From the NCBI RefSeq assembly GCF_003991155.1, contig NZ_CP031293.1: DNA of 64,000 bases, one strand, 5' to 3'. Below, in pieces: positions 40,285-49,192 of this stretch. Under the pieces are notes generated by a model. The model worked only from the letters and a program-made list of their open reading frames with translations. It made no database searches and was not told the DNA's origin. Source of the stretch: Escherichia coli. GTDB taxonomy: Bacteria > Pseudomonadota > Gammaproteobacteria > Enterobacterales > Enterobacteriaceae. The stretch's first letter is position 1, and each line of letters opens with the position of its first letter. A program made the translations under genes and the position numbers.

Positions 40285-41684
40285 AGTTCTGGCGACCCGG
40301 TATTACCGGCAAACTGTTTCTGGCGATTTTCGCCACCTGCATTGTCTTGCTGATCAGTATGCACTGGGCGGTGCGTATCAGTTTTGAGCGTGGCTTTATT
40401 GATTACATCAAGCATGGTAATGAACAACGGCTGCAAATGCTCGGCGATGCGCTTGGTGAGCAGTACGCCCAGCACGGGAACTGGCGCTTCCTGCGTAATA
40501 ACGATCGCTTTGTATTTCAGATCCTACGTTCGCTGGAGCATGATAACAACGAAGATAAGCCCGGCCCCGGTATGCCGCCACACGGCTGGCGCACGCAATT
40601 CTGGGTGGTTGATCAAAACAACAAAGTGCTGGTTGGCCCGCGAGCACCGATTCCACCAGACGGCACACGGCGGCCCATTATGGTCAATGGGGCGGAAGTG
40701 GGTGCGGTGATCGCCTCCCCTGTTGAACGACTGACCCGCAATACCGATATCAATTTTGACAGACAACAGAGGCAAACCAGTTGGCTGATTGTCGCTTTAT
40801 CTACCTTGTTAGCGGCGCTGGCGACATTCCCACTGGCGCGCGGTTTGCTGGCTCCGGTCAAACGACTGGTGGACGGTACACACAAACTGGCAGCGGGCGA
40901 TTTCACTACTCGCGTAGCCCCCACCAGCGAAGATGAGTTGGGCAGACTGGCAGAGGATTTCAATCAACTCGCCAGCACACTGGAGAAAAACCAGCAGATG
41001 CGCCGCGATTTTATGGCCGATATCTCCCACGAGCTGCGCACGCCTTTAGCGGTACTGCGCGGCGAACTGGAAGCTATTCAGGATGGCGTGCGTAAATTCA
41101 CGCCGGAGACGGTGGCTTCTTTACAGGCAGAGGTCGGTACACTGACCAAACTGGTGGATGATCTTCATCAATTGTCGATGTCTGATGAAGGCGCTCTCGC
41201 CTATCAAAAAGCACCGGTAGATTTGATCCCACTGCTGGAAGTGGCGGGCGGCGCATTTCGCGAACGATTCGCCAGCCGTGGCCTGAAACTGCAATTTTCC
41301 CTGCCAGACAGTATTACCGTATTTGGCGATCGCGACCGTTTAATGCAGTTATTCAATAACTTACTGGAAAACAGCCTGCGCTACACTGATAGCGGCGGTA
41401 GCCTGAAAATCTCTGCCGAGCAGCACGACAAAACGGTGCGCCTGACCTTTGCCGACAGTGCACCGGGCGTTAGTGACGATCAACTGGAAAAATTGTTTGA
41501 GCGTTTTTATCGCACCGAAGGTTCCCGCAACCGTGCCAGCGGCGGTTCCGGCTTGGGGCTGGCGATTTGTCTTAACATTGTTGAAGCACATAATGGTCGC
41601 ATTGTTGCCGCTCATTCGCCTTTTGGCGGGGTAAGCATTACAGTAGAGTTACCGCTGGAACGGGATTTACAGAGAGAAGTATGA
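40281..41684 (+). CDS. baeS: envelope-stress sensor histidine kinase
   Basis: 467-aa ORF; H-box ([10 protein letters not shown]), HATPase G-boxes; ATGA overlap with mdtD. Confidence 0.95.
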
Positions 41685-43820: not shown

Positions 43821-45182
43821 ATGTTTAAACCGGAACTCCTTTCCCCGGCGGGAACGCTGAAAAATATGCGTTACGCTTTCGCTTATGGCGCAGATGCTGT
43901 TTATGCGGGCCAGCCGCGTTACTCCCTGCGTGTGCGCAACAACGAATTCAACCACGAAAATCTCCAGCTCGGCATCAATGAAGCCCACGCGCTGGGGAAA
44001 AAGTTTTATGTCGTGGTCAACATTGCACCGCACAACGCCAAGCTGAAAACCTTTATCCGTGACCTGAAACCGGTGGTGGAGATGGGGCCGGATGCGCTGA
44101 TTATGTCCGATCCAGGGCTGATTATGCTGGTGCGCGAGCACTTCCCTGAAATGCCGATCCACCTCTCGGTGCAGGCTAACGCCGTGAACTGGGCGACGGT
44201 GAAATTCTGGCAGCAAATGGGACTGACCCGCGTGATCCTCTCTCGCGAGCTGTCGCTGGAAGAGATTGAAGAGATCCGTAATCAGGTGCCGGATATGGAG
44301 ATCGAGATCTTCGTTCACGGTGCGCTGTGCATGGCCTACTCCGGTCGCTGCCTGCTCTCTGGCTATATCAACAAGCGCGACCCGAACCAGGGCACCTGCA
44401 CCAACGCCTGCCGCTGGGAGTACAACGTCCAGGAAGGGAAAGAAGATGACGTTGGCAACATCGTGCACAAGTACGAGCCGATTCCGGTGCAAAATGTTGA
44501 GCCGACGCTGGGCATCGGCGCGCCAACCGACAAAGTGTTTATGATCGAAGAAGCTCAGCGTCCGGGCGAGTATATGACTGCGTTTGAAGATGAGCACGGC
44601 ACTTACATCATGAACTCGAAAGATCTGCGCGCTATCGCCCACGTTGAACGCCTGACCAAAATGGGCGTGCATTCGCTGAAAATCGAAGGTCGTACAAAAT
44701 CTTTCTACTATTGCGCACGCACCGCGCAGGTTTACCGTAAAGCTATCGATGACGCAGCTGCGGGAAAACCATTCGATACCAGCCTGCTGGAAACTCTGGA
44801 AGGTCTGGCGCATCGTGGCTATACCGAAGGTTTCCTGCGTCGTCATACTCACGACGATTATCAGAACTACGAATACGGTTATTCAGTTTCTGACCGCCAG
44901 CAGTTTGTTGGTGAGTTTACCGGTGAGCGCAAGGGCGACCTCGCGGCGGTAGCGGTGAAAAATAAATTCTCCGTTGGCGACAGCCTTGAGCTGATGACGC
45001 CGCAAGGGAACATTAACTTTACCCTTGAGCATATGGAAAACGCCAAAGGCGAAGCAATGCCGGTCGCACCGGGCGATGGTTATACTGTGTGGATCCCGGT
45101 GCCGCAGGATCTTGAGCTAAATTACGCGCTGCTGATGCGTAATTTCTCCGGGGAAACCACGCGTAACCCCCACGGTAAGTGA
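43821..45182 (+). CDS. yegQ: U32-family peptidase-like protein (rRNA hydroxylation-associated)
   Basis: 453-aa ORF MFKPELLSPAGTLKNMRYAFAYGADAVYAGQPRYSLR... Confidence 0.92.
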   Translation: MFKPELLSPAGTLKNMRYAFAYGADAVYAGQPRYSLRVRNNEFNHENLQLGINEAHALGKKFYVVVNIAPHNAKLKTFIRDLKPVVEMGPDALIMSDPGLIMLVREHFPEMPIHLSVQANAVNWATVKFWQQMGLTRVILSRELSLEEIEEIRNQVPDMEIEIFVHGALCMAYSGRCLLSGYINKRDPNQGTCTNACRWEYNVQEGKEDDVGNIVHKYEPIPVQNVEPTLGIGAPTDKVFMIEEAQRPGEYMTAFEDEHGTYIMNSKDLRAIAHVERLTKMGVHSLKIEGRTKSFYYCARTAQVYRKAIDDAAAGKPFDTSLLETLEGLAHRGYTEGFLRRHTHDDYQNYEYGYSVSDRQQFVGEFTGERKGDLAAVAVKNKFSVGDSLELMTPQGNINFTLEHMENAKGEAMPVAPGDGYTVWIPVPQDLELNYALLMRNFSGETTRNPHGK

Positions 45183-45266
45183 TTAATTTCGATTATTTTT
45201 CCCGGATGGAAAATTCTTAGAAACCGATCACATACAGCTGCATTTATTAAGGTTATCATCCGTTTC

Positions 45267-45353
45267 GCTGAAAAACATAACCCATAAAATGCTAGCTGTA
45301 CCAGGAACCACCTCCTTAGCCTGTGTAATCTCCCTTACACGGGCTTATTTTTT
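45267..45353 (+). ncRNA. cyaR: CyaR (RyeE) Hfq-dependent sRNA
   Basis: 87 nt gctgaaaaacataacccataaaatgctagctgtaccaggaaccacctcc...cacgggcttattttttt matches the CyaR sequence as I recall it, ending in a terminator hairpin plus U-run. Confidence 0.85.
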
Positions 45354-45511
45354 ATGCATAAGCCCTATCTCTGGTAACCGTCTTCCATTGACCACATCGA
45401 TAGAATCTCCCTTCATAGCACGATGCCTTTCACTTATTGGCATCGTGCTCGCACAGGTTCCGGTTACGCACAGCCAGAACGCGCATGTTTGACGCTTACC
45501 AAAAAATATTC

Positions 45512-45829
45512 TCACTCTCCACATTTGAATGTCAGACGAGCGACGCCATGTAATCCTGCACCTTCTGTCTTCAATTTAACTATCTGCATTTTTTTGCCCT
45601 GTGTAACACAGAAATGAACTGCATCATTTTTTACTATATTTTCTGCACCAGATATTCTACCCCTGGCTAAAGAAGCTTCGGCTTCGGTGTAGTATTGGTT
45701 ATCGAGTTTACGCTGAATATTACTTTTATATGCAAGACCAAATTTACCGATACTTGTCTCATCATTATGTACAGCACACCCAGACATAAGAAAAACACTA
45801 ATTAATGATATAGCAGCTATCTTTTTCAT
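45512..45829 (-). CDS. yegR: lipoprotein-like small protein
   Basis: ORF-track entry trimmed to MKKIAAISLISVFLMSGC... (signal peptide with lipobox), GGGGAAGG SD upstream. Confidence 0.8.
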   Translation of the reverse strand: MKKIAAISLISVFLMSGCAVHNDETSIGKFGLAYKSNIQRKLDNQYYTEAEASLARGRISGAENIVKNDAVHFCVTQGKKMQIVKLKTEGAGLHGVARLTFKCGE

Positions 45830-46244
45830 CTTACCTTCCCCCATTAAATACCAACGACACGCTCTGGTGTTTAAATATAATAATGGCATGATTATTATAA
45901 TTGAATAGGATTATAATAAATGTTCTGTACAACATTTCCTACATAAGTAGGAATTACATACACGGATGCCCTTCCGGGTAACCCCATGGGGGGGGGGTAA
46001 TATATTTTTAATAGTAGATTGAAGATGCCACTGTTTAGTTGAATATTAGGTATATGCTCTTTTTTGAAATTTATCGGTGGCTGCCGTTAATATTCGCTGT
46101 TCCCATTGCAAGCTCCTGGTGGTAACCACTGAATCCCCATACCTGAACTGACTTTTTATCCTCCGACTTTCATCCTGTTCTGACTCCACCTTTTCTTTTC
46201 TGCTCTACACTATCTACAGACCAATCATAAAGGCACATACGATC

Positions 46245-47144
46245 ATGGCAGAATTTCCCGCCAGCTTACTGATTCTTAATGGCAAAAGTACTGACAATCT
46301 ACCCTTGCGCGAAGCAATTATGCTGTTGCGTGAGGAAGGAATGACGATCCATGTGCGGGTCACCTGGGAGAAAGGCGATGCCGCACGATATGTAGAGGAG
46401 GCCCGGAAGTTGGGCGTCGCAACGGTGATTGCCGGTGGTGGCGATGGCACCATTAATGAAGTTTCTACGGCGTTGATTCAGTGTGAGGGGGATGACATAC
46501 CCGCGCTGGGAATTTTGCCATTAGGAACCGCCAATGATTTTGCCACCAGTGTAGGGATTCCTGAGGCACTGGATAAGGCGCTGAAACTGGCAATTGCCGG
46601 TAACGCCATTGCAATAGATATGGCGCAGGTCAACAAACAAACCTGTTTTATTAATATGGCGACAGGCGGATTTGGGACGCGTATTACCACAGAAACGCCG
46701 GAAAAATTAAAAGCCGCGCTGGGTGGCGTCTCTTACATCATTCATGGCTTAATGCGCATGGATACTCTGCAACCGGACCGTTGTGAAATCCGCGGTGAAA
46801 ACTTTCACTGGCAAGGTGACGCCCTGGTCATTGGTATTGGTAACGGGCGTCAGGCTGGTGGCGGTCAGCAATTGTGCCCGAACGCGTTAATTAACGATGG
46901 CTTGCTGCAACTGCGCATTTTTACCGGCGATGAAATTCTTCCGGCTCTCGTATCAACCTTAAAATCTGACGAAGATAACCCGAATATTATCGAAGGCGCT
47001 TCGTCGTGGTTTGATATACAAGCCCCACACGAAATCACTTTTAATCTTGATGGCGAACCGTTGAGCGGACAAAACTTTCATATTGAAATACTTCCGGCGG
47101 CGTTGCGTTGTCGATTACCACCGGATTGTCCATTATTGCGTTAA
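46245..47144 (+). CDS. yegS: lipid kinase (DAG-kinase catalytic family)
   Basis: 299-aa [21 protein letters not shown]... GGDGT motif ([10 protein letters not shown]). Confidence 0.92.
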
Positions 47145-47225: not shown

Positions 47226-48005
47226 CTACACCGTAATTAATTTCACTCGTGTCTTCTGCAATGCCAGTTTATCCACCTCTGACACAGCATCGTCGGTAAT
47301 AATAATGTCAATTTTTTCGATTGGCAGTACCTGATTAAAACCGCGACGATTAAATTTCGATGAATCGAGAACGGCAATCACTTTATTTGCGGCTGTGACC
47401 ATCGCCCCGCTAATCGAATAGCCTTCATTAAAGGTCGTAATACCATTAACCGCATCAATACCATCAGCACCGACAAACATTAAATCGGCATTAATATCCT
47501 GCAATGAACGCTCAGCAATGGAGCCATGCATCGAGCGCGTTTTATGGCGGACCGTGCCACCGCAGACGACCAGAGTAATGTCTTTATTTTCGGAAAGGGC
47601 AAATGCTGCCGGGAGACTGTTGGTAATCACCGTGATATTTTTGGCGGTCATTAATCCTTCGGCGATAAGCATTGTCGTACTTCCGCTGTCGAGAATAACG
47701 GTCATCCCTTCGTGGATCATTTTGACTGCCGCCTGCGCTATTCTGTTTTTTGGCGCGCTGGCGAGCTGAAATCGCTCTTTAAACCCGACTTCCTGGGTCT
47801 CGGTTTCACTATTACCGGACATTATTTTCGCCGCACCGCCATGAAAGCGCGTAACCACGCCTTTTTGTTCGAGAAAGCGCAAATCGGCACGGATTGTCGC
47901 TTCCGAGGCAGCAAATACTCCCGCCAGATCCTGAACAAGCACGGTTCCCTGTTCATTCACTAATTGGATGATCTTATTCCTTCGCTCGAATGAATTCATC
48001 GTCAT
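47226..48005 (-). CDS. gatR: DeoR-family repressor of galactitol operon (intact)
   Basis: Uninterrupted 259-aa ORF with N-terminal HTH and DeoR sugar-binding domain; the true start may be the third codon (MNSFERR...). Confidence 0.88.
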   Translation of the reverse strand: MTMNSFERRNKIIQLVNEQGTVLVQDLAGVFAASEATIRADLRFLEQKGVVTRFHGGAAKIMSGNSETETQEVGFKERFQLASAPKNRIAQAAVKMIHEGMTVILDSGSTTMLIAEGLMTAKNITVITNSLPAAFALSENKDITLVVCGGTVRHKTRSMHGSIAERSLQDINADLMFVGADGIDAVNGITTFNEGYSISGAMVTAANKVIAVLDSSKFNRRGFNQVLPIEKIDIIITDDAVSEVDKLALQKTRVKLITV

Positions 48006-49145: not shown

Positions 49146-49192
49146 AAAAACTCCTGATTGTTAAGGGGGATTACCTCCCCCTCAGGTAAAAA

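Follow-up and report, generated by a model that had tools for sequence, protein, structure and literature searches.

A clone-specific, length-variable G10 homopolymer in the divergent yegR-yegS spacer of Escherichia coli

Results

Organization of the yegR-yegS locus

The homopolymer described here lies in a 64-kb window of Escherichia coli DNA (the whole stretch that was analyzed, 64,000 nucleotides), within the spacer between the divergently transcribed genes yegR and yegS (Table 1). Gene annotation was adopted from the RefSeq entry for E. coli 2016C-3878 (NZ_CP029747), whose sequence matches the window at all 6,415 bases compared. The spacer comprises 415 bp (45830-46244), with a GC content of 38.8% compared with 51.3% for the window. 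It was found in 5,423 of 5,426 complete E. coli genomes and is unusually variable, with identities of 91-100% and total lengths ranging from 401 to 416 bp. Shimada et al. (PMC3946193) list both RpoD holoenzyme and H-NS as binding the K-12 spacer.

Upstream on the plus strand, the window encodes the CyaR (RyeE) sRNA (45265-45350, 100.7 bits), and yegR follows directly, with only 45351-45511 in between; in K-12, ogrK and a phage late-control D fragment are inserted between cyaR and yegR. We take this K-12 insert to be a P2-like remnant, and the phage insertion site appears unoccupied in the window strain. Between yegP and yegQ, a ParD/ParE type II toxin-antitoxin pair is annotated in NZ_CP029747 (43124-43718, plus strand), which the K-12 locus lacks. 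On the other side of yegS, gatR, encoding a DeoR-family regulator by the gat operon (47226-47999, minus strand), is intact in the window, whereas the K-12 copy is split by an IS3 insertion.

Table 1 Features of the yegR-yegS locus in window coordinates
Feature	Position	Strand	Remarks
yegR	45512-45829	minus	small protein of 105 aa, annotated as lipoprotein; N-terminus MKKIAAISLISVFLMSGC; 37% GC
TATAAT	45910-45915	minus	lies 20 nt past the EvgA box; inferred to serve as -10 in EvgA-dependent transcription of yegR
18-bp palindrome TTCCTACATAAGTAGGAA	45936-45953		predicted EvgA box of the yegR promoter; 1 mismatch to TTCYTACA-NN-TGTARGAA
Most variable spacer stretch	45958-46016		alignment of 15 sequences and haplotype list; contains the G-rich site and a 9-bp indel
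G10 homopolymer	45988-45997		C10 on the minus strand; one clonal haplotype, with G9 and G11 alleles in clone mates
TAATATAT	45998-46005		adjoins the tract; the same in 14 of 15 aligned sequences, the other having AAATATAT; -10-like on both strands
TTGAAA-18-TAATAT	46064-46093	plus	best candidate yegS promoter (predicted); -10 T-A-n-n-n-T kept in all haplotypes
yegS	46245-47144	plus	lipid kinase, 299 aa

The G10 tract is an outlier in the window

A preliminary description of this DNA had reported a run of ten G between the divergent genes yegR and yegS, and the run was confirmed at exactly 45988-45997, inside the spacer, in the context AACCCCAT-G10-TAATATAT (written GGGGGGGGGG with its immediate neighboring bases). 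It had also been called unusually long for E. coli, which is borne out by run-length statistics: the window contains 159 G/C runs of length 4, 36 of length 5, two of length 6, none of length 7-9, and the single run of ten. The tract is the sole homopolymer longer than 7 in the window, all other G/C runs being at most six bases long. A first-order Markov model predicts 0.05 runs of at least 10 per 64 kb, and this model already overestimates runs of 6-7 about six-fold or more. Homopolymers of contingency loci, which slip at high frequency, measure about 8 bases or more, a range into which the G10 tract falls. The tract falls within the spacer block that is least conserved among 15 aligned sequences. 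This block also harbors a 9-bp indel (TTTTTAATA/G), flanked by short TATAT repeats and located at 46006-46014 in the window; K-12, O157, and related haplotypes lack these bases.

Tract length is polymorphic within a single clone

Tract length was compared across strains, as the preliminary description had proposed. Spacers at least 99% identical to that of the window are present in only 38 of the 5,426 complete E. coli genomes, and all of these carry G9-G11, with shorter runs in other lineages. The spacer is identical to the window, with G10, in 29 genomes, one base shorter (G9) in five and one base longer (G11) in four; none falls below G9, and length varies in 24% of the G10-clone genomes. 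Eight of the nine deviating records were compared together with 10-kb flanks, and the G11 allele of the ninth (SX48) was deduced from its match length. The indel maps inside the G run in 8 of 8 variants compared (G11 in three, G9 in five), and their 20.4-kb flanks contain only 1-4 other differences from the window. The A7/T7 and G6 runs in the 20-kb flanks are free of indels in all eight assemblies. Apart from the tract, the 8 x 20 kb of clone-mate sequence contains one internal indel, a shortening of a G5 run to G4 in MRY15-131 (49165-49169, between gatD and the gat IIC gene); the alignment of this assembly also carries one extra base at its very end. The G tract is the clone's single length-variable spot in the region and is present in every member. 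These data agree with the earlier expectation that the tract is prone to length change, as G9, G10, and G11 distinguish near-identical genomes. The length difference among close relatives is a property shared with contingency loci. Such loci also keep their mutable tract by selection across a species or lineage; here it is confined to 38 of 5,426 genomes, and other lineages have interrupted runs of G3-G7.

At position 41487 (baeS codon 403), the window strain has G (GAA, Glu) where all eight clone mates compared read C (CAA, Gln), apparently a private non-synonymous substitution affecting the BaeS sensor kinase.

K-12-like strains and most E. coli read G5CTTT at the tract site, and further forms in the 15-sequence alignment are G5ACTTT, GAGGGCTTT, GGAGGCTTT, GGGAGCTTT, and GGGTGGCTTA. 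The haplotypes nearest to the window have G7TT or G7T. The G7TT sister group comprises 172 records at an identity of at least 99%, including one strain named ST648, and contains no G8 and a single G9 among the best-ranked matches listed; the G7 version thus appears stable among roughly 170 related genomes. Indel rates in E. coli climb exponentially with run length (PMC11754648), and a stable G7 next to a variable G10 fits this dependence, yet it fits homopolymer miscalling equally well. The sole G9TT allele among the best-ranked matches listed stems from FDAARGOS_1285 (NZ_CP070152). In this record, a T7 inside yegR (equivalent of 45589-45595) reads T9 with loss of the adjacent G, and yegR is annotated as frameshifted, pointing at either suspect assembly quality or a homopolymer-mutator strain. 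An independent second expansion was considered for this allele and set aside, since it rests on one record, from an assembly that shows a second homopolymer anomaly.

The adjacent inverted repeat matches the EvgA box of yegR

A 7-bp inverted repeat next to the tract, TTCCTAC-ATAA-GTAGGAA, had been proposed as a possible operator; it maps to 45936-45953, 2 bp to the left of the approximate position given before. To describe the site, a consensus (TTCYTACA-NN-TGTARGAA) was derived here from five K-12 promoters of published EvgA targets. This palindrome occurs upstream of emrK, frc, yfdX, safA, and ydeP in K-12 with 0-2 mismatches, and TTCCTACATAAGTAGGAA, the 18-bp inverted repeat upstream of yegR, agrees with it at 15 of 16 specified positions. 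It is the only match with at most 3 mismatches in the 64-kb window, and 50 shuffled 64-kb windows yielded no match with at most one mismatch. The box is invariant in 15 of 15 aligned sequences, amid variable neighboring sequence. Moreover, yegR is listed among the promoters strongly and directly bound by EvgA (review, PMC8147483). The match and this listing together identify the proposed operator, on sequence grounds, as the already-known EvgA activator box of yegR. The earlier proposal therefore stands insofar as the repeat is a genuine regulator site, which is better named an EvgA activator box than an operator.

A cross-species scan of genome contigs for the 18-bp EvgA box returned only unrelated chance matches and one "Citrobacter" metagenome-assembled genome; the scan returned no record titled E. 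coli, though the 18-mer is invariant in all E. coli sequences examined. The "Citrobacter sp." contig (DXKH01000116.1) shares 98.3% identity with the window across 4.2 kb and contains an E. coli spacer with G7TT; it is probably mislabelled and really E. coli.

The tract lies outside predicted promoter elements

With the TATAAT of Table 1 as -10, the EvgA box would be centered near -41.5 and the yegR start would lie near 45903; the tract would then occupy about -85 to -94, beyond the activator site as seen from the start. An arrangement of box, 20 nt, and TATAAT (class II geometry) was considered as a general feature of EvgA promoters and dismissed, since it is seen at yegR and absent from the other targets. 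Relative to the predicted start of the best yegS promoter candidate, the tract is located at about -103 to -112. On the minus strand, TAATATAT corresponds to the -10 of a yegR promoter predicted in K-12, TAAACA-18-TATATT (Shimada et al., PMC3946193). The 9-bp indel shifts the spacing of this promoter from 18 to 27 bp, its -35 being displaced by 9 bp in the window lineage. It was also rejected as the EvgA-dependent promoter, given the displaced -35 and an EvgA box that would fall downstream of the start, within the transcript.

A promoter scan of the sequence predicted no -35/-10 pair that contains the tract. In contingency loci, the tract separates -35 from -10, or an activator site from the core promoter of the regulated gene; measured against the sequence-predicted promoters, the G10 tract occupies neither position. 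Across haplotypes, 41-45 bp (mode 42) separate the EvgA box from TAATATAT, with 43, 44, or 45 bp inside the clone. As this distance drifts across lineages, the spacing is evidently not tightly constrained. The suggestion that the tract acts as a length-variable promoter element consequently finds no backing here: the run lies outside every predicted -35/-10 pair, distal to the yegR activator site, in the least conserved spacer block, and is absent from more than 99% of E. coli genomes.

Discussion

We interpret the G10 tract as a real, recently arisen, clone-specific homopolymer that is slippage-prone, neutral, and without dedicated function, in a weakly constrained part of the spacer, a reading to which we assign a probability of about 0.78. 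The setting is an AT-rich divergent promoter region that is reportedly H-NS-bound in K-12. In one lineage group, G5CTTT would have been converted to G7T or G7TT through point substitutions, and in one clone replication slippage would then have extended the run to about G10. On the simplest history, C/T-to-G substitutions would first have produced G7-G8 and slippage would then have lengthened the run to about G10, a length at which gain or loss of one G might be frequent enough to separate clone mates. The nearby functional element would be the EvgA box, likely activating yegR on the side facing away from the tract. Selection, instead of recent origin, could account for the retention of G9-G11 by every one of the 38 clone members, and a weak promoter may use the TAATAT right after the tract (45998-46003).

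Two other accounts of the tract bear on its reality and on the RNA level. Long G runs are error-prone on all sequencing platforms, and the true tract might be shorter or invariant, with G10 or the ±1 variants being homopolymer miscalls. The variation is indeed only ±1 and symmetric, two deviating assemblies contain other homopolymer anomalies, and flanking SNPs are common neither to the G9 genomes nor to the G11 genomes. Yet 38 independent assemblies from many laboratories all read at least G9, 29 of them agreeing on G10, and the tract is therefore not spurious. Apparent re-sequenced or sister isolates are moreover concordant (SX4 and SX48 both G11; E50, E67, E20, and E57 all G10; 2016C-3878 and AR Bank #0349 both G10), and the eight variant assemblies preserve their A7/T7 and G6 runs, the one exception being the G5 indel in MRY15-131. 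We thus give scarcely any credence to the tract itself being a sequencing or assembly artefact, as had been suggested previously, whereas some of the ±1 calls may have arisen as errors during assembly and not by mutation, considering the anomalies in MRY15-131 and FDAARGOS_1285. On the plus strand, the G run might belong to an intrinsic terminator or the 3' end of an sRNA (a stem of ACCCC/GGGGT with AAUAUAUUUU after it), or to the G-rich leader of a long yegS 5' UTR starting from upstream promoter-like sites at 45854-45898. A terminator scan flags 45981-45998, the K-12 version of the segment forms a 12-bp hairpin (z = -2.8), and a transcript from the yegS promoter predicted at 45870-45898 by Shimada et al. 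would cross the tract. The flagged match is, however, a stem of only 5 pairs that exists solely because of the G run, with an interrupted U-tract; the window version folds no better than shuffled sequences on either strand (z = +0.48 and +0.58), and promoter-like matches arise by chance in AT-rich DNA (4 found, 2.1 expected). RNAalifold detected no compensatory changes (0 of 21 consensus pairs covary across 11 haplotypes), and an Rfam search of 45100-46400 at a permissive E-value returned only CyaR, with nothing in the spacer. With z = +0.48, no covariation, and no co-oriented upstream gene, the tract does not resemble an intrinsic terminator. A conserved RNA or terminator was accordingly dropped as a candidate, as folding of both strands, RNAalifold, and Rfam gave nothing covering the tract, and we deem an RNA element exceedingly unlikely. 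The K-12 hairpin itself (equivalent of 45955-46015, plus strand; -17.4 kcal/mol, z = -2.76), a fold lost in the window lineage, may be a chance or lineage-specific feature.

In a regulatory alternative, the length of the G run would determine how far the EvgA box lies from a yegS-directed promoter with TAATAT as -10, or in what helical phase the two stand, such that G9, G10, and G11 would differ in yegS or yegR expression. The order of elements (EvgA box, 34 bp, G10, TAATAT) fits, TAATATAT is nearly invariant beside a variable segment, and tract length is polymorphic within the clone. In glucose-limited chemostats, loss of yegS brings a benefit under some conditions (PMC3708739), so selection could act on variable yegS expression. 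Against this, the TAATAT abutting the tract is without a recognizable -35 and was not called by the promoter scan, and a better yegS promoter candidate is found 67 bp further downstream. In the literature found on EvgA, yegS is not listed as EvgA-regulated, and its product, a cytoplasmic lipid kinase, would be atypical for phase variation. Seen from yegR, the tract lies beyond the activator site. The drift in box-to-TAATAT distance and the adjacent 9-bp indel further suggest that spacing is uncritical, and the mutable tract is missing at this site in more than 99% of E. coli. We hence consider such an influence on expression quite improbable, and its full form, a slippage switch that would re-phase the EvgA box against a yegS-directed TAATAT promoter to create heritable, reversible yegS states in the clone, highly improbable. 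If true, it would constitute an E. coli counterpart of the Bordetella BvgA/poly-C fim switch, a striking parallel; the tract would be notable only if it modulated yegS or yegR expression.

The preferred reading, a slippage-prone repeat without dedicated function, can be set against known systems. In Bordetella fim2/fim3, a poly-C tract lies between the BvgA site and the -10, BvgA being a homologue of EvgA, and Neisseria porA/opc carry poly-G/C in the promoter spacer. In E. coli, phase variation through simple sequences in promoters is, to our knowledge, very rare. The window tract shares with both examples its similar length, its polymorphism, and its position directly upstream of a -10-like hexamer, and with fim2/fim3 a nearby site for a response regulator of the BvgA family, here the predicted EvgA box. 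Unlike these systems, it is distal to the activator site for yegR and absent from more than 99% of strains, its neighbors are not typical phase-variable surface antigens, and the yegS-side promoter is only putative. The box itself is the same 18-bp palindrome as in the EvgA-controlled acid-resistance promoters of emrK, ydeP, safA-ydeO, yfdX, frc, and yegR, with nothing material different; one half-site deviates at one position (AGTAGGAA versus TGTARGAA). Its annotation as the EvgA box of yegR is a useful by-product of this analysis.

The tract most closely resembles the intergenic mononucleotide microsatellites of E. coli, which likewise are long single-base runs with ±1 polymorphism among close relatives (PMC11754648, PMC8928963). 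In a survey of Escherichia, runs of at least 10 were mostly intergenic, and the ratio of A+T to G+C runs was 11.6 for runs of at least 6 (PMC8928963). The tract might serve as a fine-scale typing marker for the clone and can be expected to attract homopolymer miscalls when genomes of this lineage are assembled. Whereas the adjoining regulatory site was already known, the new element is probably an ordinary clone-specific microsatellite, differing from other Escherichia microsatellites in belonging to the rare G/C class and in a length well above that of all remaining G/C runs in the window.
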